A DNA stretch of 64,000 bases from a virus (lineage: Duplodnaviria > Caudoviricetes). Below, piece after piece: positions 11,401 to 27,619 of the stretch; the stretch's first letter is position 1, and each line of letters starts with the position of its first letter. The notes beneath the pieces are model-generated. The model saw only the letters and a list, made by a program, of their open reading frames with translations, ran no database searches and had not been told where the DNA came from. Both the position numbers and the translations under genes were made by a program. The stretch covers positions 649 through 64,648 of the IMG/VR virus record IMGVR_UViG_3300035682_000032; one strand, given 5' to 3'.

Positions 11401-12020
11401 ACCTGCTGATCAACAGCACCGGATACCGTGAGCAAGACAACGCAGTGCTGGCATTCTTGCAACTCATGGGTGGCCCAGTCTACGGCGTAGCCGACCGGAT
11501 ACAGCAGGGCGTTAAGTTGATCAACGAGGGTGAGACCGAGCGCGGCTTGGAGCGTATGCTCCCCGCAGGTATCGCCAACGGGTTCAAGGGTATTCGCTTT
11601 GCAACTGAGGGTGCCAACACCTTGCGTGGTGACCCGATCACCGGTGAGATGCACCCTGCCAATGCGTACGCTCAGATGTTTGGTTTTGCACCTGCCGAGT
11701 ACACCCGCCAGTTGGAGATCAATGCGTCCCTCAAGAACATTGAGCGCCGTGCTACCAAGGAACGTACCAAGGTGTTGCGCGACTACTACATCGCCGCACG
11801 AAGTGGTGACGCAGACGGCATGAGTGATGCACTGGACGACATGTTCAAGTTCAACAAGTTGCACCCCACGGCGGCAATCACAGCCGAGACTATCCAGAAC
11901 TCAATGGCGCAACACATGAAGACATCGCAAGAGATGTACCATGGCGTCACCCTCAATAAGAAGCTCCGCCCTGAGTTGTTACAGAACGCGGCTGAGTACG
12001 ACAACGGGTTGCTGGACTGA
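5412..12020 (+). CDS. large polyvalent/internal virion protein with a zincin-like metallopeptidase motif
   Basis: AAGGAG RBS, 2202 aa. Gly/Ala hydrophobic N-terminal region, GLYDP...LLHEAVH...DEFVAEA (HExxH plus downstream Glu), helical C-terminal region. Last gene of the late arm. Confidence 0.7.
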   Translation: MPLYQITGPDGNLYEIEGPEGATRQQVIAAVQKRMSSQEDTNAEARLQQLRAEREEMLKPKPTVGGSIKEFGKGLVPGAINLLESAGTGISALLPDDTEKAAREKIKELAGIAKKPFEAGAGYEDSVMRKLGEGLGSTLPFFAAGPLGLAGRVAAGGLGVAAGAGEARESAEAKGATGEERRLATQLGAPTGLLDLLAPQIKPFKSLVGTAFARGGVEGATEAAQKVAQNLIAKGVYDPQQEILVGSGEEGAYGAGVGALASLIIDMTIGRKARRASLGLDKEAPKETTPDALRLTGEAPFTPVGLPDGSVAMTREDLAAYEESKFKDKYAPQDAAPRLREKDAVGTQGELYPSERDSALIQLSQMEGPQRQAPADFELEMQEAPRGVQQELDLQPRIERDTQTRDMIDDLEETQQIEELYAKDEREAAKIRAEKERIKFESDLAELTGAVERKQEKTSQDTRLQLLLPIVESDVKNIPKAFVLELKREGFTNTNLTDRERNLINRAYDIRLAEEPVVEAEPEVQASEEQKKELRSIESLIPEKKAQREPQQMGFPGMGKPKGAAPQAFSEEEIASQEKPFATVLTPEVLANAGLPKQSGFYKQLLNMDMADTAQQPVVANIFGRIRENPNLSTGTKDAVENLAMQAFGGLAKQGDMFVPAKPIKAAKEDKKNATATRPAAGKPAERGRDKNAGDVAGGTGTRTEDRKPSGAKDERTGAPADTKRVETPKPTGLGDRGKPADDTGVRKGVEPPALKKTEVKDGKVTSLVERRQNQIEDQEDAQDAAEFAEDLKAVRQRTRNKYERRIKSLWPVIEKAKKVLRDTAYPNSLEAGSVERSIQELEGVAKQYDALMEGENFNSPLRRFDEVMEGLSADTQRLQEAIDALNASPKPKPKTEAKGKPEAKAEKPKADASFGAYGQVMEAESKSDALDYLAYDMYVAMFEKHKLLSRVDKLNDITAQLRTGIPVDDIAFGREGTTSIVPLSGGKYAKAFYESLSAADKRALSNKMSDYFNKSEAEVRRGSTQFNVQQELSRATKEQMDNDQLELSRDAVVLALPLHPAIRKALKAGDLRGALTMLGSQNLGRASEVAKKLAGAMGKTKVELEPMLLNAEDVPVAGLYDPKTDTIKLDAEEGVNLHVLLHEAVHAATSHVIDNKSHPVTKQLTELYNNVKDSLDTAYGAQSLDEFVAEAFSNPEFQQQLAAINPKGEAITAWQRFMHAIRNFVRSIMGKETKGMGSALDASDSLINTILSPAPESREAGSLFSASLLGKSSAVFKTLDNRILSLPALDNKIVGGIYELFREGVPSAVQKLVRRSLPLNALTEVAKEDIPMAPKLDELEKRWSGSIDKRKRATEATMKRIQNWVKGNPEKEVILNDVIATSTLDQVDPSKPRADYKGKQSESGLDKQKVWDDLQPQWNKLGPEGQSVYKQMRDTYAKTYDDLLNLMFNRIDNSVTDKEDAKKLKTEIYQRLATKGKIEPYFPLTRNGDYRLSYDGKGRDGNLEHFVEHFETSVERERAIKELEKESGVKNIQRFKGGAKRTYKDAPPTSFVNSILRTLEANRPAGEAGKIHDQMTDEIMRTFLSTLPETSFAQAFRKRKNTPGFSFDAPAAFFTRSMGMAHQLANLEYSGKMYQLRDEIDKHVKEKNNTERARGLADELNSHIQTLVSPDIAPWSKALTSTAFAWTLGFNVSSAVVNMSQVPLVLMPYLGGKYGYSETMKALGSATKLFFGSGLKRNAEMSVPTADGKSKIEISAGFSLDNYDFDAKDTPPEIKRLKELSQIAEDYGLLSRSMTHDILDMDEKSTPLNRVNAWSGFIFHHGERMNRQISLIASYELELDRMAKDGEKIDSASRTEAAKRAIQTTELLNGGASAGSAPLLAKNSIGKIMFMYKRYGVSMYYMMFKTAREAMKSEDKKVRDAAMRQIVGIYASAGMMAGVQGLPMFGIMAAVYNMFKGDDEDDAETAARKYLGEGLFNGAVNYLTGTAVANRIGLSDLLINSTGYREQDNAVLAFLQLMGGPVYGVADRIQQGVKLINEGETERGLERMLPAGIANGFKGIRFATEGANTLRGDPITGEMHPANAYAQMFGFAPAEYTRQLEINASLKNIERRATKERTKVLRDYYIAARSGDADGMSDALDDMFKFNKLHPTAAITAETIQNSMAQHMKTSQEMYHGVTLNKKLRPELLQNAAEYDNGLLD
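7429..7677 (+). CDS. overprinted small protein (82 aa) in the +1 frame inside the 2202-aa gene
   Basis: AAGGAGG RBS 9 nt before the ATG at 7429. Protein-like helical sequence; the host frame is low-complexity here. Confidence 0.5.
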   Translation: MQPQQDPQPGNPLNEDVIRTQEMSLEELELALKIANRAVQRTSALEPLLIPSELKHLSPLDWEIVGNLLMTLECEKAWSPLH

Positions 12021-12021
12021 T

Positions 12022-12052
12022 AAAAAAACCCCCGCTTTTTACGGCGGGGGTT
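12022..12052 (-). terminator. Rho-independent terminator of the leftward arm/sRNA (possibly bidirectional)
   Basis: Minus strand AACCCCCGC-cgtaaaaa-GCGGGGGTT running into a T7 tract. Confidence 0.85.
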
Positions 12053-12095
12053 AAATCTCTTTTCAAAGGAGAAACGAAGTGACAGGCAACCTGTC
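12022..12095 (-). ncRNA. candidate trans-acting small RNA with an anti-RBS seed
   Basis: Upstream promoter match, 5' hairpin GACAGG-ttg-CCTGTC, pyrimidine-rich segment ACUUCGUUUCUCCUUU, then the intrinsic terminator. Confidence 0.55.
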
Positions 12096-12102
12096 GGGGG
12101 CG

Positions 12103-12131
12103 ATACTATCACAACCTTCTCCAAATGCGAA
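12103..12131 (-). promoter_or_regulatory. sigma70-like promoter for the candidate sRNA
   Basis: TTCGCA-17 nt-TAGTAT with an extended -10 (TGn). Confidence 0.5.
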
Positions 12132-12372
12132 CCCCCCAGTAGCCACCTTCGATTCCGGGCCGGTAGTGAACGACCCATTCCCATTGACTTGTTATCTGGT
12201 GAACCTGACGCACAAGCTCCAGCGTATTCACGCAAGGGATGAACACAGAGGCACCCGCTGGAAACTTGTCCCAGCGGACAACGATACGCACCCCATCGGG
12301 TGCGAGGTCGTCAATCCTGACTCTGTTTCTCGAACAGCGCGGCGGTTGTCGCCAGAGCTTGCTCAGTTTCAT
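12109..12372 (-). CDS. hypothetical protein (start uncertain)
   Basis: ORF overlapping the primase 3' end, with globular-looking sequence (GASVFIPC...GVRIWR). Confidence 0.55.
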   Translation of the reverse strand: MKLSKLWRQPPRCSRNRVRIDDLAPDGVRIVVRWDKFPAGASVFIPCVNTLELVRQVHQITSQWEWVVHYRPGIEGGYWGVRIWRRL

Positions 12373-15166
12373 CGTCCATAAACCCTGTGCAGTCCAACAC
12401 CAAAACATCGGTGGGGGGCATGTTGATGTGGGTGCCCTTGCCGAGTCGAACCTTGGCTTTGATTGCCTTGGTGCTTCCCGTTCTCAGACCGTCAACAAAC
12501 CCAGCGTAGTTGATCTGTTGCTTGCCGCACCATGCCTTGAGGGGCTTGATCAGTAAGTACAGCTTCTTCACATCGTACTCATACCGCGCAACGAACTGAC
12601 CACGAGGTGAACTGTCGGGCACCACAATCTTGTCAAGTGAACCAGCGGTGTTACGCGCATCCTCAGTCGATGTGATGCGGAGCATGTTGTTGTAGTTCTC
12701 AGCCATATAGTCGGTCAGTTGGGCTTCGACATTGACGTTCATCTCGCCCACCATGACTTTGGCTTCAGCCATCACCTTGACAATCCACTGCACAATCGGC
12801 GCAATCTGCCAAGTGATCAGGCCAGCTTTCTTGGCCAACATCAAACCTGCAATGGTGCGTGAAGCCAAGGCAGACCAGTAGCGATTCTCAGCAGACAGGC
12901 TCGACGCCGCATCAAGTTTGCGTTGCACTGTCATGGCAAGTTCTTTGACCGCATCCAAGTTGTTCAGGATGTATTGGATGTAGAGCACACCCGCATGCCC
13001 AAAGTTGTCCTTGATGGCGGTGCTAAAGACATCGGTCTCGGACTTGGTTGCGAACTTCACAGGCTCAACACGGTACTCAAGCACCCGTTGGGCTTCTGCT
13101 TGTGGCAGAGCTTTGAACAGTGCGATGCGTTCAAGCATTGAGGTGTTACCCGTTGTGCCGAACAGAGTCTTCCAAGGTTTGCCACGTACGCGCTCGACGT
13201 TGCCTTTCGGCCCCATGCGGTTACGTTGTAGGCCGCTTGGCAGTTGATACGCCCAGTCAGACAAGTCTTGCGGCTTGGTGTTGGTCATCTCGTCCATATA
13301 GCAGACGATGTTCTTGTACACCTCGGCACGGTTCATCTTTGAATTGAACGTGTCACGCTCTTGCATCACCAACAGATCAGGGTCACCCCAAATAGATGCA
13401 CCTGCATACATGGCTGTGGTCTTACCCAAACCGGAGCCCTTGCTCCATGCGTGGAAAGCGGCGGCGTTGATCGGCTGAAACTCCATGAGGACAGAGCCCA
13501 GCGACAGCCCAAACATGAATTGGTGCAACTCCATGTTCGGTTGGTTGTAAAACTCCATGGTCTGCTTCCACTTCTCCAACGTGCCCTTGGACTTGAAGAT
13601 CGGGAACAGCCCCACGGTAGCGGCAGAGGGTGAACTCACTTCAACACGGTCTTTGAAAACTTCCATGTTGCCGACAACAAACGATTCGTGCTTGTCGTCC
13701 TTCCACCCAAATTGCCGACATGCTTCGTCGGCTTCAGAATTAAACTGTAACTCGTTTACCCATCTCATCGTGTACTCCATCAGTTCTTGTACGTTCAGGA
13801 CTGCCACACCCTGTGCCGCAAGTTGCTTGCGAAACTCATCCTTCGTACCCACAGCAGTTAAAGGCAACGTGAACTCACGTACGCCATCCTTGGGCAAGTG
13901 CAAACGCATCACCAATGACTCACCTGCTTCGGGGTCTTTGATGCGCCGTATGACGTAGAGGTCGTTGAAATAAACCATCACGTCTTTGTCTTCACCCTCG
14001 GTGTTCTTGGAGTGCTTGAACACCCCACCACTCTTACCCCTGAAGTACGGGTGCGGGTACTTGGGGATGACGTATCGAATTGGCGTAGCCGCAGTCACGT
14101 CCAGTGGTTTCTCAATGACGATGTTGTCAGACTCGTCAGCTTCCTCAACCTCACGCCCAAGGGAGATCGGTGATTTGATCTTGCCCCAGTGCTTGCAGTC
14201 AGGGCAGACACCCGCACGGTACTCGTCAAAACGTGTGCACAGGTATGGGCCTTTGATCAGGTCAACCTTGTGCTCGGTTCCTTCGGGTGTGTACTCAGGG
14301 TGCTTGGCAGAAATCTTGTGAATTGCTTTGCCACCATCAACACAGAACTTGGCAATCGACAGCCCCGCTCTCCACAAAGGCTCTGAGATGTTTGGTTGGT
14401 TGTTGACAACTTCTTTGAGTTGTTCGCACCCAGTGCCACTCATGGTCTTGATCAGTATGGTCTTGAACCGACTCACGAAACTGCCCGACAGGGCTTGCAT
14501 CATGGCGTCTTGCTCTTGCGGCACATACTTCTTTGGGGGCACCAAGATTGACGAGTCATCGCCCATCAGGTCACGGAACACGTCAAACTCAATAGGTGCA
14601 CCTGCCTCACCCACTAACCCCACGGGGGCAGGAGGATTGGGCTTGTGATTGTGCGTATTGGGCACCCGCAACACACGCGCCGCATCTGCTGGTACGGCAG
14701 GGTCATTGCGCATCCCGTGCTTTGTACACAGGCGTTTGAATTGCTCAGCAACAGGCACCCACGTTTCACGTGAAACAGGGGCGGTCAACGGCCAGTACAC
14801 ATGGATGCCACGTCCTGAATTTACGATAGTCGGGCGCGGTAGCTTCAGTTCTTTACAGAACGTGCGTAGTGCGGCAAGAGCTTCGCTCTGTGTCGCGTAG
14901 TCTTTTGTTGGCCCACAGTCAAGGTCAAGAAAGAATGATCTAAGTTGTTTTACGTTGGGTGCCTTACGAGACCCAGCTTGGTCAAAAGTGCCCAACGCAA
15001 AATAAGCGTCATACCCTTCAGCATCTAAATTGTGAGCAGCATGGATTGCGGCATCAAGGTTGTCGTAGAACTTCTGCACCTTGCGTTCATCGGATAGCCG
15101 ATAGGCAAATATGCAGTAATACCCTTCATCCCCCAGTACCGACTCCAGAAATTTTTTTGTTTCCAT
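12311..15166 (-). CDS. primase-helicase (RepB-like primase N-terminus + DUF927/NTPase)
   Basis: FFLDLD, SGRGIHVYW and RVLRVP primase motifs, CxxC, Walker A GSGLGKTT, Walker B YMDE. Confidence 0.85.
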   Translation of the reverse strand: METKKFLESVLGDEGYYCIFAYRLSDERKVQKFYDNLDAAIHAAHNLDAEGYDAYFALGTFDQAGSRKAPNVKQLRSFFLDLDCGPTKDYATQSEALAALRTFCKELKLPRPTIVNSGRGIHVYWPLTAPVSRETWVPVAEQFKRLCTKHGMRNDPAVPADAARVLRVPNTHNHKPNPPAPVGLVGEAGAPIEFDVFRDLMGDDSSILVPPKKYVPQEQDAMMQALSGSFVSRFKTILIKTMSGTGCEQLKEVVNNQPNISEPLWRAGLSIAKFCVDGGKAIHKISAKHPEYTPEGTEHKVDLIKGPYLCTRFDEYRAGVCPDCKHWGKIKSPISLGREVEEADESDNIVIEKPLDVTAATPIRYVIPKYPHPYFRGKSGGVFKHSKNTEGEDKDVMVYFNDLYVIRRIKDPEAGESLVMRLHLPKDGVREFTLPLTAVGTKDEFRKQLAAQGVAVLNVQELMEYTMRWVNELQFNSEADEACRQFGWKDDKHESFVVGNMEVFKDRVEVSSPSAATVGLFPIFKSKGTLEKWKQTMEFYNQPNMELHQFMFGLSLGSVLMEFQPINAAAFHAWSKGSGLGKTTAMYAGASIWGDPDLLVMQERDTFNSKMNRAEVYKNIVCYMDEMTNTKPQDLSDWAYQLPSGLQRNRMGPKGNVERVRGKPWKTLFGTTGNTSMLERIALFKALPQAEAQRVLEYRVEPVKFATKSETDVFSTAIKDNFGHAGVLYIQYILNNLDAVKELAMTVQRKLDAASSLSAENRYWSALASRTIAGLMLAKKAGLITWQIAPIVQWIVKVMAEAKVMVGEMNVNVEAQLTDYMAENYNNMLRITSTEDARNTAGSLDKIVVPDSSPRGQFVARYEYDVKKLYLLIKPLKAWCGKQQINYAGFVDGLRTGSTKAIKAKVRLGKGTHINMPPTDVLVLDCTGFMDDETEQALATTAALFEKQSQD

Positions 15167-15199: not shown

Positions 15200-15228
15200 A
15201 AAAGAAAGGGTGGGGAGCGACCCCACCC
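15200..15228 (-). terminator. intrinsic terminator between the SSB-like gene and primase
   Basis: Minus strand GGGTGGGG-tcgct-CCCCACCC-TTTCTTTT. Confidence 0.75.
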
Positions 15229-15237
15229 TAAAACAAA

Positions 15238-16182
15238 TCAGTCGTCCCAGTCTCCAACAATATCGCTCAACTCAGACTTCGGCTCAGCGGCAGGTGCGGC
15301 TTTCTTGGTCACCTTGATTGGCTCAGGCACTTCTTCAGCCTCAACCTTCTCAGCTTTCGGCGCAGTCTTGGCAACGATCTTCTCGTATGCAGGTGCGTCT
15401 TCTTGCTTGGTCAATTCACCCATCGGCAACGTACCCTTTGGCTCAGGAATCACGCCGTCCATTTGCGACACGTTCAGGGTGATTGCCTTGATGGTGTCAG
15501 GATGGTTTTGCAACTTGACTGCAACCTTGAGTTCTTCTTCCTCCAGTGCACGCACGGGGCTGAACACAAGTTTAGGAGTGGCGCTGTCAATGTCAAAACG
15601 CATCTCGGTCACAATGGAAATCGCAGGAGTGTTGTACGCCTTGAGGTGACGACCATAGGCTTGCAGTGGCATCTTCTTACCCTCTGCATCACCGAACACA
15701 GATGTTGATGGCAGTGTGATCTGATACACGGCTTCTTTGTGCAACTCGCCATCGAGCGCCACGGCTATACGCTGTTGGAAACGGCAAGCGCGTGTGTCGC
15801 CTTGACCGGAGCCCTTGATGTGTTGCTTGCAGTCTTTGCAGAACTTGGCTTGACGCTGATCTTCGGGCACTGCCTTGTCAGGGGTTTGCGTGTCGCTTGA
15901 CCAGCACGTGGGCTTGGTCTTGGCACCCTTGACGTAGGTGCCTTCAAAGAACATACGCGACACAGGTGCGGCGTTGATCAGGATGACTTTCATTGAGCGT
16001 TCTTCGCTCACACGAACTTCTTTGCCACCAACATACTCGCGGAATGCACCGCCTTCAATGCTGATGCGCTTGTTGCCACTACCGCCACCCGCAAGGGTAC
16101 TTGTCAGGCTGTCTTCTACTCCGCTCAAGAGGGCGAGGGCGGCGTTGTTGGGTTTTCCAAACAGGGTCATTTCGTTACTCAT
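15238..16182 (-). CDS. putative ssDNA-binding/recombination protein
   Basis: Replication-module context, CWS...CKDC...C zinc motif, acidic C-terminal tip (GDWDD). Confidence 0.6.
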   Translation of the reverse strand: MSNEMTLFGKPNNAALALLSGVEDSLTSTLAGGGSGNKRISIEGGAFREYVGGKEVRVSEERSMKVILINAAPVSRMFFEGTYVKGAKTKPTCWSSDTQTPDKAVPEDQRQAKFCKDCKQHIKGSGQGDTRACRFQQRIAVALDGELHKEAVYQITLPSTSVFGDAEGKKMPLQAYGRHLKAYNTPAISIVTEMRFDIDSATPKLVFSPVRALEEEELKVAVKLQNHPDTIKAITLNVSQMDGVIPEPKGTLPMGELTKQEDAPAYEKIVAKTAPKAEKVEAEEVPEPIKVTKKAAPAAEPKSELSDIVGDWDD

Positions 16183-16196
16183 TTTCGTTTCTCCAG

Positions 16197-16460
16197 TTAA
16201 ATATCTTCGTCAGGGTTGTTGAATGCCAATTCAAGTTGAACAGGCAGTTTGGGGTCTACGGCTTTTGGTGCTTCCGGTTCGTCCTTGGGTACGCTTGAAA
16301 GGGCTTTGACCACCGCAGGTACGTTGAAGCGGTAGGTGTTACCGATCTTCAGATACGTGTCTTTGGGGATGTAGCCCTGTCGCACCCATGCACGAACAGT
16401 CGATACCGAAACCGTAAACTGTTTGGCCAAGTCTTCGATTGGCACAAATGGTTCACTCAT
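16197..16460 (-). CDS. excisionase-like HTH DNA-binding protein
   Basis: IEDLAKQFTVSVSTVRAWVRQGYIP...KIGNTYRF matches the HTH_17/MerR-like pattern. Confidence 0.8.
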   Translation of the reverse strand: MSEPFVPIEDLAKQFTVSVSTVRAWVRQGYIPKDTYLKIGNTYRFNVPAVVKALSSVPKDEPEAPKAVDPKLPVQLELAFNNPDEDI

Positions 16461-16882
16461 TACTTTCTCCTTACGGTTATGGTGTATTCGCTATCCACAT
16501 TGAGTCCCGGTGGTAACGTGTCAGGATTGGCCTCAAGGAACTCTTTGAGGTTGGTTTGATGTATGCGCTCATGCAGTAACTGCGGCGCATTGTGCTCAAC
16601 GATGAACTTGTGCATCGACTCCCAGTCGTTTGTCCAATAGTTCACCTTGACGGTGCGATAGAACAAGCCTTCGCCTGTGCGTACGCTGTCTACGTTTTGC
16701 TCTTTACAGAAACCCAAGAGGGCAGACTTTACTTTGTCCATCTGACCCTTGAGCTTCTTCTCCTCGGTCTCGTAGGCTACACGCATCTCGTCGTGCTTGG
16801 CCTTCATCTTCAGGTACACCCTGACCAGCTTCTCGGGCGGTAAGGCAGGGGTTTCTGTGGGTGTGTCGGTTGGCTCAGTCAT
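16460..16882 (-). CDS. conserved phage hypothetical protein
   Basis: Coiled-coil N-terminus, LPPGLNVDSEYTITVRRK end; GAGG RBS supports the ATG at 16882. Confidence 0.65.
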   Translation of the reverse strand: MTEPTDTPTETPALPPEKLVRVYLKMKAKHDEMRVAYETEEKKLKGQMDKVKSALLGFCKEQNVDSVRTGEGLFYRTVKVNYWTNDWESMHKFIVEHNAPQLLHERIHQTNLKEFLEANPDTLPPGLNVDSEYTITVRRK

Positions 16883-17156
16883 TGTTGATTTCCTCGTTGA
16901 GTTTTTGATGGGCGATGGCAAGTCCGTAGGCTTGCTTGGTTTGGTCGAGAAAGTTCTCGAACGGCACCCCATGCTCCACTGCCGCCAAAGCATAGACTTC
17001 AGCCAATGCGGTCAGCAGAATCGGTGTGGTGAGTTCTCGCTCGGCATGCACCTTGCGAATACCCTGCATGATGGCAGTCTTGAGGTCTGTCATCGTGCGA
17101 ACCGACTTCATCAGTTCCTCAGCGCGGCGCTGTTTATAGTCAGGATTCTCTGTCAC
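16875..17156 (-). CDS. hypothetical protein
   Basis: GGAG RBS and GTG start, downstream of a near-consensus promoter. Confidence 0.65.
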   Translation of the reverse strand: MTENPDYKQRRAEELMKSVRTMTDLKTAIMQGIRKVHAERELTTPILLTALAEVYALAAVEHGVPFENFLDQTKQAYGLAIAHQKLNEEINND

Positions 17157-17185
17157 TTCGTTCTCCGTTTGTTGTTGGGGTTTTT

Positions 17186-17214
17186 ATTATAGTGGCGTTT
17201 TACCGATTATTCAA
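17186..17214 (-). promoter_or_regulatory. sigma70 promoter
   Basis: TTGAAT-17 nt-TATAAT. Confidence 0.75.
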
Positions 17215-18748
17215 GTATTTCTTTGTAAAGATCAACTATTTTTGAGTGAACGTCAATTTTATTATCTAATAAGTTGTAAACGTGTCTTTCTACACCTGAC
17301 CCCACCAGTTGTACCACTGTAGATGGGTGTCGCTGACCCGAACGGTGGACTCGGGCGTTGGCTTGGGCATAGGTCTCAAGGGAGGATGTCGGCCCCCACC
17401 ACACCACCGTATTGGCGGCTGTAAGGGTCACACCGTGCGCGGCGGCTTGTGGTTGGATGACAAGTACCTTGGTGCCCTCGGGCTCGGTCTGGAAGCGATT
17501 AAAGATGTCGGTGCGCTTGTGCACAGGCACATCCCCGCTGATCACCTCGGTCGTGTAGCCATCGGCATTGAGCTTGTCGGTCAGGATGCTGATCACATGC
17601 TTGAACGGCACGAACACAAGCACCTTCTGACTGGACTCGTCGATCACCTCGGTCAGCACGTTGTAGCGGTTCTTGATGTCGAACTCCAAGGTCTCGCCTG
17701 AATCGGAGTACACCGCACCACAAGATATTTGCAGGAGCTTGGACATGTTCACGGCGGCGTTGACTGACGTGATTTCTTCCCCTGCGGCTTGCACCACCAT
17801 GCGGCTCTTGAGCATGCCGTAGTAGCGTTCCTGTTGCTTGGTCAACTCGACTCGGCGCTTGGTGTAGGTCATCTCGGGCAAGTCAAGGCACTCGTCCTTG
17901 GTGTACCGGATGGCAGGTTGCAAGCACTCGAACACGGTCTGCGTTGCAGTCTCTTTGGCAAGCCAACGGAAGTTGTTGAGCTTGGTCATCACCATGTCGC
18001 GGAAAGTTGTGAAGAACTTGGGGACACCTTGTGGATTGACGAGCTTAGCAAGGCCATACGCATCGAGGGGGGACTGAGCGGCGGGGGTGCCTGTCATCAT
18101 CCAAAGCCATGTCTCAGCCTTGACCAATGAGTTGAGCACCTTCCACCGCTTGGTCTGCACGTTCTTGTAGGCGTTCGCCTCGTCAATCACAATCAGGTCA
18201 AAGCCGCCCTTGGCAATGTCCTCGGCGACGATCTCCACGCCGTCATAGTTGATGATCACAAACTCGGCGATGCCGTTGATGATGGCCTTGCGCTTCTCCT
18301 TGGCACCGTACGCTATGTCAACTGATCGGTGCATAGCGAACTTGAACAGGTCTGCTCTCCACGCTGAATCCATGATGGACAGGGGGCAGATCACAAGCAC
18401 CCTGCGGATTCGTTTCTGTTTGAGCAGGTAATCTGCCGCCCAAATGACTGACCCCGTTTTGCCCGTGCCCTGTTCGTTAAGGCAGAACGCACGGCGGTTC
18501 ATTGTGAGGAATGCGGCTGTTGTCTTCTGATGGTCAAACGGCTTGTACTGGCCGGGCCAGTCGTAGCGTCCCATGATGGGTGATGGCACGTTTTTCACGC
18601 GCAGATTCTTGAGGACTTGCGCCTCATCCAACCCCCAATGCACCAACACTTGGTTGTTTGGGAGTTCCCTACTTTTAGGGATAACTGTCGTGACGCGATG
18701 CGGGTTACGCAACGTCAACAACAGGGCTTTGTTGTCAATGATTTCCAA
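17207..18748 (-). CDS. SNF2-family superfamily 2 helicase
   Basis: EQGTGKT, VIDEA, MTGTP, QANARVHRSGQ motifs. Confidence 0.9.
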   Translation of the reverse strand: MEIIDNKALLLTLRNPHRVTTVIPKSRELPNNQVLVHWGLDEAQVLKNLRVKNVPSPIMGRYDWPGQYKPFDHQKTTAAFLTMNRRAFCLNEQGTGKTGSVIWAADYLLKQKRIRRVLVICPLSIMDSAWRADLFKFAMHRSVDIAYGAKEKRKAIINGIAEFVIINYDGVEIVAEDIAKGGFDLIVIDEANAYKNVQTKRWKVLNSLVKAETWLWMMTGTPAAQSPLDAYGLAKLVNPQGVPKFFTTFRDMVMTKLNNFRWLAKETATQTVFECLQPAIRYTKDECLDLPEMTYTKRRVELTKQQERYYGMLKSRMVVQAAGEEITSVNAAVNMSKLLQISCGAVYSDSGETLEFDIKNRYNVLTEVIDESSQKVLVFVPFKHVISILTDKLNADGYTTEVISGDVPVHKRTDIFNRFQTEPEGTKVLVIQPQAAAHGVTLTAANTVVWWGPTSSLETYAQANARVHRSGQRHPSTVVQLVGSGVERHVYNLLDNKIDVHSKIVDLYKEILE

Positions 18749-20241: not shown

Positions 20242-20762
20242 GGTTGGCTACTCCAAGGTGTGAGAGGTTGCAAGGGTGTTACGGCTTGCTTGGCTACCTG
20301 TGCGTTTTCCCACATTTCTTTTTGAATGGGCTCAAGCGGCTCCTGTATTTCACGTACCCGTTGTAAGCAAGTCAGGATGGCAAGTTTCTCTGCGTCCTCG
20401 TACAGTGCGCCGGTGGACTCGTGTAGTAGCGCATCCATCACCTCCTTGAGCACGGAACGCTTGTCTTCCAACACCCGTTGGTTAAACGTCTTACGCGCCC
20501 ACTCGATGAACACTTGAGCCGATGTGTCGGCTTGCCCGTCGAACTTCATCTCGTCGCCGTTAAAGTCAAAGCGTCCGATCTCCTTGCCGCTCGGCCCATG
20601 GAATACGATGTTATGGTTCTGTTTCTGCGCCCCGATCTGCACTGAGTTGAGCGTTTGATTTGCCGTGTTGTTCATGGTGTATGAATACGCATCGTAGGCG
20701 TGGTCAACGCCAAGGGTGGTGCTTGTACCTGCGATATTCGCTGTTCCTTTTATCGTGCTCAT
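20238..20762 (-). CDS. hypothetical protein
   Basis: Start overlaps the polymerase stop codon. Confidence 0.6.
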   Translation of the reverse strand: MSTIKGTANIAGTSTTLGVDHAYDAYSYTMNNTANQTLNSVQIGAQKQNHNIVFHGPSGKEIGRFDFNGDEMKFDGQADTSAQVFIEWARKTFNQRVLEDKRSVLKEVMDALLHESTGALYEDAEKLAILTCLQRVREIQEPLEPIQKEMWENAQVAKQAVTPLQPLTPWSSQP

Positions 20763-22588
20763 CAGCAGTCTCCATAAGATTTACCACTGCCTGACTCACA
20801 GTTCACAGGCAGACCCTTTGCCCACTCGGGCACCCATCGCATGCACTCCTCAACATACTGCGTTGCGGGTACAACCTCAATATCTGGTACGCACACAGCA
20901 ATCGCGTCATGCACAGTCAGCACAACCTTGTAACGCTTACCGATCTTGAGCATCTGCTCAGCGATGATGCAACGTGCGATGGCTTGGCATACGTTCTCGA
21001 TCACCTTGCCGCCGTAGATACGGGTGCGACCCTTGCGTGTCTTGTAGTGGAACTCAATACCCTTGTCGGTTTGGTCAAACTTCAAGTCGTCGTAGCGCAT
21101 CAGCAGACCCGAGGGCAAGCGGATGGCTGTCTCTTTGGGTGCCACTTCAAGCACACCCCGGATACCAAGAGGTGCGGGTTCACCGCGTGACATGTTTACA
21201 AGAGCGTTCTGAGCCTGTCGCCACAGCCTGACCACGGCATCGTTGGTGCGTCGATAAATATCAATGATGCGCCGTGCTTCGTTAACGTCCACATCCACAC
21301 CCATGTTCTTGAGTTGGGCTTGGAACTTCACAGCACCCATGCCATACCCCGCGCCAAGGATTGTGGTCTTACCCACGAACCGCTCGTCTTTGGTGATCTC
21401 GAACTCAGGCTTGCCGTAGATAGCCGAGGCCATCTTCTTGTACACGTCCTTGCCCTCAGCAAAAGCTGTTACCAAGTCATCTTGCCCTGCCAACCATGCC
21501 AGCACCCGTGCTTCGATCTGTGCAGAGTCAGCGTCAATGATGGTGTAGCCATCGGGTGCAATGATTGACTTCTTGAGCTTGTTGGCGTTGTTGCCACGGC
21601 TTGGCAAGTTCTGCATGTTGATCTTGTCGTCGCCACCAAACCGTCCAGTGTGTGCGGCGTAGTAACGAATCGGCACAGGCAACTTGCCGCGCTTAGAGAT
21701 GTCAATGAACCGTTGGGTGCGTGTTTCCTCAAGCGTTGACTTGGTGCCCAAGCGGGCGGCGACAAGTGTCTGCACCCTGACATCTTCATGGTCAGCAAGG
21801 GCTTTGAACTCCTCGTCACTCTTGGCGAACGCATAGGTCTGCTTACCCGTGGCAGGGCTTGTCTTCATTGGGGGCTCGACGCCGAACGAACGGAGCAGTT
21901 CAGCAAACTTCTCATTGCTCATCAGTTCCGCCTTGTCCACACCCGAGGATGTCAGCAGGTCTTCCTTCATCTGCTTGATGCCAATGAGGTGTTGTTGCAA
22001 CATGTCGCCGTCCAACTCAAGCATGGGGTCGATGAACATGCGCAGGGTCTGATCAATCACACGCAACTCTTGCTTGGGAAAATCTTTTACCAAGATGTTG
22101 AACAGTTGATACGTAAGTTCCACATCGTTGATGCAGTAGTCACCATACCGTGCGAGTTCCTCGTCGCTGAAGTTCAGTCGTCTTTTGCCGAGGGCGTTAA
22201 CAACTTCTGTTCCTTTTTCCCCGAGCCCATACCGCTCAGTAAGAGCTTTAAGCGAACCCCCAACTTCCACGCCGTGAAGGGCACGGCCCATACACAGAGT
22301 GTCAAGCCAACCCCGAGGATTAATACCGAAACGCCAAGACAGGATAGCCCCGTCAAAAAGGGTGTTGTGCGCCAAGACAAACCCCCGCTCCCATTCAAAA
22401 TTGCTCTGAAGCCACTCTCTGATTTGTTGATGTGTTCCACTTGCCCACTCCGTTTCTTGGTTGTTAACTTTCACTGATACGCCAATGACTTCAAAGAGGT
22501 CAGAGCGTACGTATTCTTCGGTTGTGATCTTCGACAGCGAGAAGTCGCGGTCGTAGTACGTTTCAAAGTCAATTGTTATTAAGTTCAT
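20762..22588 (-). CDS. polA: DNA polymerase, family A, with 3'-5' exonuclease
   Basis: Exo I IDFET, AHNTLFD, YCINDV; HTGRFGG, NMQNLP; motif A DSAQIEAR, motif B RFVGKTTILGAGYG, motif C TVHD. Confidence 0.93.
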   Translation of the reverse strand: MNLITIDFETYYDRDFSLSKITTEEYVRSDLFEVIGVSVKVNNQETEWASGTHQQIREWLQSNFEWERGFVLAHNTLFDGAILSWRFGINPRGWLDTLCMGRALHGVEVGGSLKALTERYGLGEKGTEVVNALGKRRLNFSDEELARYGDYCINDVELTYQLFNILVKDFPKQELRVIDQTLRMFIDPMLELDGDMLQQHLIGIKQMKEDLLTSSGVDKAELMSNEKFAELLRSFGVEPPMKTSPATGKQTYAFAKSDEEFKALADHEDVRVQTLVAARLGTKSTLEETRTQRFIDISKRGKLPVPIRYYAAHTGRFGGDDKINMQNLPSRGNNANKLKKSIIAPDGYTIIDADSAQIEARVLAWLAGQDDLVTAFAEGKDVYKKMASAIYGKPEFEITKDERFVGKTTILGAGYGMGAVKFQAQLKNMGVDVDVNEARRIIDIYRRTNDAVVRLWRQAQNALVNMSRGEPAPLGIRGVLEVAPKETAIRLPSGLLMRYDDLKFDQTDKGIEFHYKTRKGRTRIYGGKVIENVCQAIARCIIAEQMLKIGKRYKVVLTVHDAIAVCVPDIEVVPATQYVEECMRWVPEWAKGLPVNCESGSGKSYGDC

Positions 22589-23072
22589 CTTGCACCTGTG
22601 TTGTCGGGAAATACGAGTTCATCACTTCGCGGTAATCAAATTCTTCGGTGAAGCAATCTTCGATGCTCACAAAGTCCAAGCCTGTCCGTACCACTGCATC
22701 GTTGTAGACAAACATGTGTGACGGCACTGACAGTCGGTTGTGCACAAAGTCATGCCCATCGAGCGTAGCTCTCCACACACCGCTTGTCTTGACCTTCTCC
22801 GAGTCGGGTGCACGTGACTGCACCAAACCCCAATACTTGAGGTGCCCAATAGAGTTCGAGCGCAACATGAACAGTGGCACGTTGTCACGTGTGTTGACCC
22901 ATCCGTTCTCTGCACCCGCTGATACGCTCACGAGCCACGCCAGTGAACGCGCCATGCCGCCAGTCAGTTTGACCTTGTTGACTTTACCCCACCGATCACA
23001 CACGGGGCAGTAGCCACCGTCTGATTCGATCATGTTGCGCCAGTTGTGACGCAATGTTGCTTCTTCTGTCAT
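22569..23072 (-). CDS. hypothetical protein (CxxC, possible winged helix)
   Basis: GGAG RBS; YCPVCDR and LKYWGLV. Confidence 0.6.
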   Translation of the reverse strand: MTEEATLRHNWRNMIESDGGYCPVCDRWGKVNKVKLTGGMARSLAWLVSVSAGAENGWVNTRDNVPLFMLRSNSIGHLKYWGLVQSRAPDSEKVKTSGVWRATLDGHDFVHNRLSVPSHMFVYNDAVVRTGLDFVSIEDCFTEEFDYREVMNSYFPTTQVQDELNNN

Positions 23073-23093
23073 CTTCGTTCTCCTGTTATGTTG

Positions 23094-23315
23094 TTAAGAG
23101 TTTTCTAACACTTCATTCAACTTCAGCATGTAGTGTCTGCACTTGTCAGCATCAGGGCTGTCTTTCTTGCCCTGCCTCATGCTGTACTTAATGATGTTGC
23201 CTTTGAGAAACCCAATGAATTCCTCTCGGGTCAACACTGACGCCATCACATGCCATGGTTGTACCTCCATAGTTTTGTAATGGTCGCCACCTGCTTGTAT
23301 TTCATCTGCGTTCAT
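23094..23315 (-). CDS. DUF3310/SaV-like protein
   Basis: QAGGDHY...FLKGNIIKYSMR...K...D..K..HY. Confidence 0.8.
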   Translation of the reverse strand: MNADEIQAGGDHYKTMEVQPWHVMASVLTREEFIGFLKGNIIKYSMRQGKKDSPDADKCRHYMLKLNEVLENS

Positions 23316-24559: not shown

Positions 24560-24926
24560 GGAACCACCCCTTGATACGTTGCCACAGAGTAGGCGGCTCG
24601 ACCATGGTGATGGGCAAGTGTCGGTCTTCCCACTCGCTTGCTTGTGGGTACACGTTTTGTGCGGGGTTGATCACGGGGGTCGGGGGCATTGATGCCAGTT
24701 CCCCTGCCCTGATCTTGCGCGTACGCTTCTTAGGCGGCACACCGATGCCGTTCGTAGGATTCGGCAGTTCACCAATCGAGCCAAGGCCACGTGCCTTGTT
24801 GATTTGGTATCGGATGTTATACACAGCTTGCGGTTTGCATTTGATCTTTTCGATAATGGCTTTGTTGTTGTAGCCGCTATCAATCAGTGAGCGAATGCGC
24901 TGTGATGTGCTTGGTTTCTTTCTCAT
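24552..24926 (-). CDS. hypothetical HTH-like protein
   Basis: IRSLIDSGYNNKAIIEKIKCKPQAVYNIRY; AGGA RBS. Confidence 0.55.
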   Translation of the reverse strand: MRKKPSTSQRIRSLIDSGYNNKAIIEKIKCKPQAVYNIRYQINKARGLGSIGELPNPTNGIGVPPKKRTRKIRAGELASMPPTPVINPAQNVYPQASEWEDRHLPITMVEPPTLWQRIKGWFRG

Positions 24927-26683: not shown

Positions 26684-27619
26684 TCACACCTCCTTCGTTT
26701 CGTACATGCCCAATGCTTTGTTCATCAGGCGGTTATATGCTGACCTGATCTTCATCAAGTCTTCCTTGCTCTCGATGACGCGCTTGCCACCGATGTCATC
26801 AATGACCAATGCCATGAGCGGGACACGCAGGGGATGATCTTCTTGCTCCACGATGTATCGAACCAGTGCGCTCGGTAGCTGATTGATACCACCGTATGAC
26901 GGAGCATCAAAGCCATTCTCTTTGCACCATTCGGTGATGACTTGTCTGTACTCATGGCGTCCGTTCCACGTGGTGTCGATCATGGGTGCCAACGCCGCCG
27001 CTTGCGTATAGAACGCATCAATGCTTGCCTTCCATTGTTTCTTGAGTTCTTTGTCCACAGTTGTTACCTCTACTTTGAATGCGTCACCAACACGTGTAAA
27101 CGTGTCATCCTCATTGACCCGAAACTTCAGGCGTTTGCCGTCATCACGACCCGCTTCCTTGAGTTGGTAGTCCCACTTGTAATCAGTCTTGGGCAAGGGA
27201 AAGTCCTCGTACCCATTCGCTGTCTTGGCACGTACCCAATGCTTACCCTGTTGGTTGTACCCAAAGCCCATGTTGATAGGCAGGTGCCACCGCAAGAACT
27301 GAAACCGTGAGAACGGAACGGAACCCTTCACACCGTTGCGCACATAGATGTAATCGCCATCAGCTTCACGCTTCCACATGATCGGTGCCATGTCTTGTTC
27401 GTACTGTGCATCACCCCGCCCGTTGTTATTGAACAGGGTCGAACCGTAGTACCCGTCGAGTAACAGGTAGGTCTCGTCGTCCACCTTGCGGATGCGCTCC
27501 CACTTGCGGTTACGCTGACCGATGGGTCGGATGTTGTCTGCGGCTGTGTGATGCTTACTCACCACAGGCTTGGTCTGTTCGTACCATGCCACCACACTGT
27601 TGAATGTATTGAATCTCAT
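26684..27619 (-). CDS. hypothetical protein
   Basis: 311-aa ORF with AAGGA RBS. Confidence 0.65.
   Translation of the reverse strand: MRFNTFNSVVAWYEQTKPVVSKHHTAADNIRPIGQRNRKWERIRKVDDETYLLLDGYYGSTLFNNNGRGDAQYEQDMAPIMWKREADGDYIYVRNGVKGSVPFSRFQFLRWHLPINMGFGYNQQGKHWVRAKTANGYEDFPLPKTDYKWDYQLKEAGRDDGKRLKFRVNEDDTFTRVGDAFKVEVTTVDKELKKQWKASIDAFYTQAAALAPMIDTTWNGRHEYRQVITEWCKENGFDAPSYGGINQLPSALVRYIVEQEDHPLRVPLMALVIDDIGGKRVIESKEDLMKIRSAYNRLMNKALGMYETKEV

Follow-up and report, generated by a model that had tools for sequence, protein, structure and literature searches.

A conserved minus-strand unit between the converging arms of an uncultivated phage genome: a candidate small RNA that covaries with a distant start region of the same phage

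The stretch of DNA analysed here (the window) comprises 64,000 nucleotides (nt) of the virus record IMGVR_UViG_3300035682_000032 (Duplodnaviria; Caudoviricetes; positions 649 to 64,648), and our subject is a short minus-strand unit at 12022..12131 that is predicted to encode a small RNA (sRNA). The source phage is uncultivated and of freshwater type, its group is present in dozens of metagenomes, and its genome record of ~64-67 kb is organised as two arms. The rightward arm carries the structural genes (terminase 34497.., portal, head, then on across the window ends), and its last gene, encoding a 2202-amino-acid (aa) LPD39-domain protein, ends at 12020. The leftward early/replication arm spans from ~33 kb down to 12.3 kb and encodes an ATPase, an HNH endonuclease, a DNA polymerase (20762..22588), an exonuclease, an SNF2-type helicase (17207..18748) and a DUF927 primase (12311..15166). 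The predicted sRNA unit sits in the 290-nt gap between the two converging arms, behind the primase and a conserved 87-aa open reading frame (ORF).

The promoter, hairpin, CU-rich segment and U7 terminator that an earlier note on this DNA had claimed for the minus strand all lie exactly where it had placed them. Together with the small gene that they follow, the features are:

12109..12372, minus strand: conserved 87-aa ORF (MKLSKLW...) with wobble-type conservation; its ATG lies 261 nt ahead of its stop
12126..12131, minus strand: -35-like TTCGCA, read from the sequence, within the last codons of the 87-aa ORF and followed by a 17-nt spacer
12103..12111, minus strand: extended -10-like TGATAGTAT, of which the TGA at 12111..12109 doubles as the stop codon of the 87-aa ORF
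12111-12110, minus strand: TG upstream of the -10, read from the sequence
12103..12108, minus strand: -10-like TAGTAT, read from the sequence
12022..12096, minus strand: predicted sRNA of ~74-75 nt, from an inferred start, placed by sequence 7 nt past the -10, through the end of the U7
12081..12095, minus strand: 5' hairpin GACAGG-UUG-CCUGUC, from the sequence and a hairpin scan
12065..12080, minus strand: CU-rich core ACUUCGUUUCUCCUUU, read from the sequence
12060..12086, minus strand: seed region including the CU-rich core, from duplex scans and from covariation with the start region TIR-A (see below); the duplex can continue into the hairpin's 3' arm
12022..12052, minus strand: intrinsic terminator, a GC-rich stem (12052..12027) and seven U to 12022, from the sequence and a scan

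The terminator is common to the unit and the converging 2202-aa gene. Both it and the 5' hairpin were listed by the feature scan, and the minimum free energy fold of the predicted sRNA consists of two hairpins (-29.0 kcal/mol). An 83-nt stretch folds at -29.3 kcal/mol, compared to -17.0 +/- 2.8 kcal/mol for its shuffles (z -4.3; 0/200 as stable). The U7 tail and the AU-rich segment ahead of the terminator would be compatible with a dependence on Hfq or ProQ. On the plus strand, a promoter-like match (GTGACA-17-GATACT, 9/12 consensus positions) at 12079..12107 mirrors the seed and the minus-strand -10 and is probably a by-product of them.

The relatives examined come from IMG/VR: 75 loci lie around the primase, with primase identities of 28-100% (46-100% except in a single case), and 80 around the polymerase. 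A pattern search recovered 33 distinct versions of the unit in 54 loci plus the window, and the sRNA-like arrangement proposed in the earlier note is conserved as a unit in these 33 distinct relatives. The covariance model R1, built from the 33 units, finds a single copy in the window (92.1 bits) and one copy per locus in 42 of the 75 primase loci, on the same strand and always just 3' of the primase and the 87-aa ORF.

RNAalifold returns two helices for the 33 units, with 95.8% of the cells paired and 8 of 11 pairs changed on both sides. None of 500 column shuffles matched any of five structure measures, and in controls with slid partners the pairing was only 41-52%. Helix 1, the 5' hairpin, differs strongly in sequence between lineages; all five of its consensus pairs show compensatory double changes, and 96.1% of its cells are paired. 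The terminator helix shows compensatory changes in three of six consensus pairs. In helix 1 the G.U cells number 11 against 2 A.C cells (cells that are not independent events), and this excess points to the minus-strand RNA as the folded molecule. The seed is also better conserved (mean column identity 0.85) than the flanking spacers (0.69 and 0.73).

Upstream of the first helix, all 33 aligned units have T G A T A.. A T, with variation at the two middle positions. The same motif is invariant in 24 sequences collected by BLAST, a set free of the bias of the search pattern, and it occurs in 7 of 12 distant loci that were read directly, while L044 has TGATATAGT instead. The 5' stem begins 4-7 nt past the motif in the relatives. 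Because the stop codon TGA of the 87-aa ORF is also the TG-A of the extended -10, the putative promoter would lie within the last codons of that gene. Third codon positions at 12112-12133 are conserved at 0.875, compared to 0.74 elsewhere in the 87-aa ORF (n = 8 vs 59; one-sided Mann-Whitney p = 0.016). A TA..AT that is fixed around free middle positions right after a stop codon is the pattern predicted for a -10 element and is unneeded by coding.

Where could such an RNA act? Two start regions of the leftward arm stand out, both comprising a Shine-Dalgarno (SD) sequence and a start codon, and a third may be added with reserve:

17150..17166, minus strand: TIR-A, the primary predicted target, reaching from the SD over the GTG start (17156..17154) to 4 nt beyond it
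17186..17214, minus strand: promoter P_A (TTGAAT-17-TATAAT), near-consensus sigma70, overlapping the helicase stop codon
23066..23083, minus strand: TIR-B, the second predicted target, reaching from the SD to 4 nt past the ATG of a 167-aa gene (22569..23072; phrog_2693)
16183..16194, minus strand: possible weak third site in the SD region of a 314-aa gene (phrog_27714), own-versus-permuted z -3.1

The seed covaries with TIR-A. In 15 lineages, we matched the part of the RNA that begins with the 3' arm of hairpin 1 and runs up to the terminator with the TIR-A of the same lineage. The duplexes of own pairs average -23.9 kcal/mol, compared to -17.6 +/- 1.0 kcal/mol for permuted pairs, and 0 of 100000 permutations was as good. 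The own TIR-A ranked first in 7 of the 15 lineages and first or second in 11. The gain of own over permuted pairs is 6.3 kcal/mol at TIR-A (z -6.1), whereas at four control start regions (the helix-turn-helix (HTH) gene, the 314-aa gene, the primase and the helicase) it is 1.3-2.1 kcal/mol (z -2.0 to -3.1). The changes can be followed in individual lineages: L020 has AAATG/CAUUU in place of the window's AAGTG/CACUU; in L106 the duplex runs over 20 uninterrupted pairs, with a single G.U at the start codon; CGCGATG is common to seed and target in L105, as is GATAACGA in L032; and in L114 and L045 the duplex has moved upstream into the 5' untranslated region (UTR). That own pairs beat cross pairs argues for compensatory change or conversion, since independent drift from a complementary ancestor would not produce it. 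Apart from a change at TIR-B in one lineage (see below), secondary sites show no such lineage specificity (mean of the second to fifth best start regions, own no better than foreign seeds). The covariation of seed and ribosome-binding site (RBS) that the earlier note had suggested looking for is found across lineages for the top-ranked gene at 17156.

Within the window, the six RBS matches that had been listed are real in sequence: GGAGAACGAAG followed by GTGACAG at 17156, GGAGAACGAAG followed by ATGACAG at 23072, GGAGAAACGAA (11 nt) at 16182, GGAGAACGAAT at 18748, GGAAAACGAAG at 27619 and AAAGGAAACGAAG at 24926. The exact 12-mer, allowed up to two mismatches, is not enriched in the window (7 matches vs 4.25 expected; 15/100 shuffles reach 7). 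The 11-mer GGAGAACGAAG with at most one mismatch is enriched (5 vs 0.83 expected; 0/100 shuffles reach 5), and four of its five matches lie at gene starts of the leftward (minus) arm. When all 30-mers of both strands were scanned for duplex formation, 17156 was the best non-self site (-31.1 kcal/mol) and 23072 the third (-26.2 kcal/mol), after a plus-strand site at -27.0 kcal/mol that is not a gene start; the first percentile of the background is at about -17 kcal/mol.

Cofolding of the whole 75-nt RNA with 85 start regions, taken from gene calls by a crude heuristic that includes some spurious frames, places 17156 first (net gain -22.3 kcal/mol), 23072 second (-19.0 kcal/mol) and 16182 third (-14.0 kcal/mol). 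The remaining sites that had been expected at the top did not hold that place: 27619 ranks fifth (-10.0 kcal/mol), 24926 eleventh (-7.8 kcal/mol), and 18748 lies outside the best 14 of the 85 (-2.7 kcal/mol), the gains forming a continuum from about -10 kcal/mol onward. In general, start regions of the leftward arm fit the RNA better than those of the rightward arm (median -5.95 vs -2.8 kcal/mol; p = 0.0002). The common GGAGAACGAAG-type RBS of the leftward arm is therefore real, but only TIR-A and TIR-B stand out, and the other listed targets have in common only this generic type of RBS. Many early and replication genes had been proposed as targets; lineage-specific covariation is found at 17156 only, with 23072 a strong second.

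Nor is the primary target the polymerase, the helicase or the primase; TIR-A heads a small operon. P_A is conserved in 66 related loci examined, with TIR-A ~25 nt behind it. In the window, the first gene behind P_A is a 93-aa ORF (16875..17156), which overlaps the start of a phrog_13900 gene (16460..16882); further downstream follow a small MerR/excisionase-like HTH protein (16197..16460) and the phrog_27714 protein. Which gene P_A and TIR-A head differs between relatives: most have a 135-138-aa phrog_13900 protein at this place, others a 77-aa ORF, and the window has the 93-aa ORF. Homology among the relatives breaks right after the TIR-A start codon (17149..17156, minus strand), and the start region looks like a mosaic joint. 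In two relatives of the 77-aa type (L010 and L021), the start motif is repeated ahead of the next gene. Between the 314-aa gene and the primase there is a terminator-like hairpin (15207..15229, minus strand; nine pairs, then TTCTTTT), and so the primase may be transcribed apart from the P_A genes.

Conservation of the TIR-B motif extends to 31 sources, in most of which the encoded protein is only ~35-46% identical. In the L106 lineage it becomes ACGAGATG, which matches the change in the seed of that lineage. The start region AACA..GGAGAACGAAGATG (23066..23095, minus strand) is nearly invariant across the 31 sources, and the leader of TIR-B resembles that of TIR-A over ~35 nt.

We therefore hypothesize, with a probability of roughly 0.6, that the unit encodes a trans-acting base-pairing sRNA that blocks translation. 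Covering the SD and start codon is the established way in which trans-acting RNAs of such an architecture work. An RNA of 74-75 nt would be transcribed leftward from the extended -10 promoter (TG-N-TAnnAT), which lies over the stop codon of the 87-aa ORF. It would begin at the foot of the 5' stem-loop, expose a CU-rich single strand and end at the U7 where the two arms converge. This CU-rich stretch, extended by the hairpin's 3' arm, would pair at TIR-A, 5 kb away on the same strand, with the SD and with the start and following codons of the first P_A gene. The duplex there would cover ~ -12 to +9, a segment that the 30S subunit has to occupy, and the RNA would very likely form a second duplex with TIR-B (23083..23066). 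By keeping the 30S subunit off, pairing would repress translation of these early transcripts and of the genes coupled to them, and probably lower their stability. Among the general marks of trans-acting sRNAs, the unit has a Rho-independent terminator and a seed whose complementarity to a distant start region is maintained through compensatory changes. The comparative evidence supports the sRNA reading well. Transcription from an own promoter, action in trans and a repressive effect are what we infer from it; a role in timing or in a carrier state could at most be inferred, and neither the early-to-late switch nor the many-gene regulon suggested earlier is supported.

Several observations weigh against this interpretation. 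The minus-strand promoter was not called by the simple promoter scan, as it agrees with the consensus at 8 of 12 positions and the cut-off is 9. Its -35 lies in conserved coding sequence, and the hexamer varies among distant lineages. Moreover, the pattern by which the 33 units were collected itself demanded TGATAnnAT and a terminator. The own promoter is also not universal, because the most distant relatives (L046, L047, L051 and L053, with primases 39-45% identical over the last 250 residues) have neither the -10 nor the 5' hairpin, while they keep the CU-rich stretch before the terminator. With regard to pairing, L035 (rank 13) and L023 (rank 9) show no special fit to their own TIR-A, scans of the whole body of the relatives give a TIR-A-type top site in just 18/33, and the differences between seeds and targets are G.U-compatible in 7 cases and of A.C type in 5. 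Finally, none of the sequencing runs recorded as RNA contains an 8-kb stretch of this phage. Four runs that were compared consist of contigs marked as probably DNA and derive from relatives (most pieces less than 95% alike), and so carry no information on transcripts. In the four most distant relatives the small ORF ends in TAG and the CU-rich stretch runs into the terminator stem, an arrangement that may be an ancestral 3'-UTR form.

These same relatives, with CU-rich stretch and terminator but without -10 and 5' hairpin, favour the view that the unit is a promoter-less 3'-UTR element. The CU-rich stretch would then be the 3' end of the primase/87-aa mRNA and would act either as a processed sRNA or by pairing in cis of the icaR type; pairing between 5' and 3' UTRs over the SD does occur in bacteria (PMC3868564; PMC5737220). 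The weak -35 agrees with this view, and so does the position of the unit, which, as in the icaR type, is on the same strand as its target and at the 3' end of a gene array starting at P_A. Here, however, the terminator-like hairpin at 15229..15207 intervenes between the P_A genes and the primase and makes a single 5-kb transcript doubtful. The 3'-UTR explanation is also at odds with the TAnnAT past the stop, which is invariant across lineages, and with a stem-loop that follows it at a fixed 4-7 nt, and we consider it unlikely.

Could the RNA be directed mainly at the host? At gathering thresholds, no Rfam family matches over the whole window. Below them, RF02278 (Betaproteobacteria toxic sRNA) aligns to the unit on the minus strand over its full length with 35.7 bits (threshold 50), and in the permissive search RF02837 (anti-hemB) does so with 29.1 bits (threshold 49.5). 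When eight related loci were searched over their full length, RF02278 gave the top match at the unit in five of them (25.8-36.7 bits). This resemblance (12020..12097, minus strand) may serve as a weak hint at a betaproteobacterial host. The RF02278 family includes the double-hairpin sRNAs ncS03, ncS05, ncS27 and ncS62 of Burkholderia, with CU-rich unpaired stretches that are complementary to RBSs and predicted to pair over them, and overexpression of ncS27 attenuates growth, as reported in the relevant parts of PMC5688073. Our unit is like them in its size class (~57-92 nt), in having two hairpins of which the second is the terminator, and in a CU-rich unpaired stretch complementary to RBSs. 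It differs in that the 5' CU-rich motif of the model (positions 1-10) aligns to UGUCACUUCG, which has no CUCC, in being phage-borne with a promoter that overlaps a stop codon, and in a seed that tracks one phage start region and not many host genes. An sRNA that mainly binds host RBSs and reshapes or shuts off host translation, with the fit to the phage being secondary, would account for the sub-threshold resemblance to both families. It would not account for a lineage-specific covariation with the own TIR-A that reaches well past the SD core, and a search of bacterial genomes by way of the primase found no relative there. Overall, a host-directed role seems quite improbable to us.

The covarying sequence could also be a site on the DNA, a motif of 17-20 bp that is bound or recombined by a phage protein such as the HTH protein at 16197..16460. 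There are three copies, at 12066..12086 (plus strand), 17150..17166 (minus strand) and 23066..23083 (minus strand), and the fact that one of them is inverted would pose no difficulty, as binding or recombination sites would evolve in concert in any orientation. TIR-A lies exactly at the mosaic joint, where relatives carry different genes, the MerR/excisionase-like HTH gene is part of the same operon, and the wobble test gave no preference for RNA over DNA. On the other hand, the inverted copy is always the unpaired segment between two covarying RNA hairpins, past a conserved -10, and the direct copies are always at an SD plus start codon. In addition, the complementarity slides from the upstream 5' UTR (L114, L020 and L045) to the downstream coding sequence (window), as would be expected of an RNA duplex more than of a fixed protein site. 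We regard a DNA-level site as very unlikely.

It is slightly less probable still that there is no regulatory RNA at all, and that a bidirectional terminator merely follows a stable hairpin while any sequence containing CUCC fits RBSs. Most of the listed targets are indeed at background level, the 12-mer is not enriched and the secondary sites are free of lineage specificity, as this explanation would have it. It fails to predict the covariation of seed and TIR-A, with 0/100000 permutations as good and weak controls, and it gives no account of a seed conserved at 0.85 between spacers at 0.69 and 0.73.

The last alternative, that the motif is simply the RBS of a genuine plus-strand gene at 12079..12381, had been named in the earlier note as a possible refutation. 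It can draw on a good SD, a 7-nt spacing to a GTG and an open frame of 100 aa in the window, but it is refuted by comparison of the relatives: 13 of the 33 lack a start codon at the required distance, frames in the remaining 20 range from 7 to 100 aa, 1-nt indels follow the GTG, the frame has no family match, and the opposite strand holds a gene with a clear wobble pattern, of which the plus-strand ORF is the shadow.

Returning to the trans-acting sRNA, we compared it with regulatory RNAs described in phages. The c4 RNA of P1 and P7 appears to be the closest phage RNA in logic, by analogy. Where related phages differ in c4, the target shows corresponding differences. It is a phage RNA of ~77 nt that acts in trans and blocks the RBS of a phage mRNA, according to the passages on c4 in PMC12197685 and PMC8546580. 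The predicted sRNA is likewise phage-encoded, similar in size and proposed to pair in trans around a phage mRNA RBS. Unlike it, c4 is processed from the transcript of the operon that it controls, upstream of its target and in the immunity region of a temperate phage, whereas the RNA described here lies 5 kb downstream of its target, after the primase, and has a putative promoter of its own. Also in contrast to these temperate phages, no integrase is found among the 29 window proteins scanned. The Rfam family of c4 is absent from the matches in the window, both thresholded and permissive.

Other comparisons are more distant. OOP of lambda and sar of P22 are phage RNAs that are short, end in a terminator and repress a phage gene through base pairing; in the case of sar, the start region of ant is covered (PMC12197685). 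They are encoded opposite their targets and fully complementary to them, while the targets predicted here are on the same strand, 5 and 11 kb off; the only opposite-strand frame that overlaps the unit is not a conserved gene, which argues against a cis-antisense RNA. VpdS of VP882 and PreS of lambda are phage-encoded trans-acting sRNAs that bind Hfq and act on phage and host mRNAs (as summarised in part of PMC12197685). The predicted sRNA is phage-encoded and proposed to act in trans as they do, and has no sequence relation to them. In a limited search of full-text literature, we found no report of an sRNA from a virulent-type phage whose distant target in the phage co-evolves with it.

A more far-reaching version of the sRNA reading is speculative, and we think it improbable as a whole. 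The RNA would be part of a specificity system, shared by a widespread and apparently virulent uncultivated phage group, in which the phage shuts off its own P_A operon and TIR-B, with seed and target diversified together. It would be a phage-borne descendant or mimic of the host's CU-rich double-hairpin sRNAs, and it would repress only matching relatives, giving a c4-like heteroimmunity or exclusion between co-infecting phages. The common GGAGAACGAAG-type RBS of the early arm would in this scheme provide a graded regulon of several genes.

The phages in which regulatory RNAs are known are few, in culture and mostly temperate. In this uncultivated group, comparison of sequences suffices to yield a testable case with a defined RNA and a defined primary target, and natural compensatory variants already predict which seed/target pairs should work and which should not. 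If the interpretation is right, environmental phages of the virulent type would use post-transcriptional control to time or limit an early operon, phages too would carry CU-rich anti-SD sRNAs like those of Betaproteobacteria, and conserved start-region cassettes at mosaic joints could be linked to an RNA regulator.

With regard to the wider genome, the G+C content of the window is 0.50-0.54, and a search of a phage record collection at the DNA level gave no resembling record. The 87-aa ORF upstream of the unit overlaps the 3' end of the primase by ~60 nt in another frame. It is found in all 33 distinct relatives, and in an alignment of 24 distinct relatives 12315..12112 (minus strand) behaves as coding sequence with a wobble pattern. 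The last 68 aa match no Pfam or PHROG family. A reading of the ORF as a frameshift extension of the primase, or as a fusion with it, was dropped, as the frame offset is the same in 33/33 units and all but one of them have an ATG 261 nt ahead of the stop (32/33). The ORF also contains a stem-loop of 12 pairs at 12252..12280 (minus strand), in which conservation is mixed with coding constraint.

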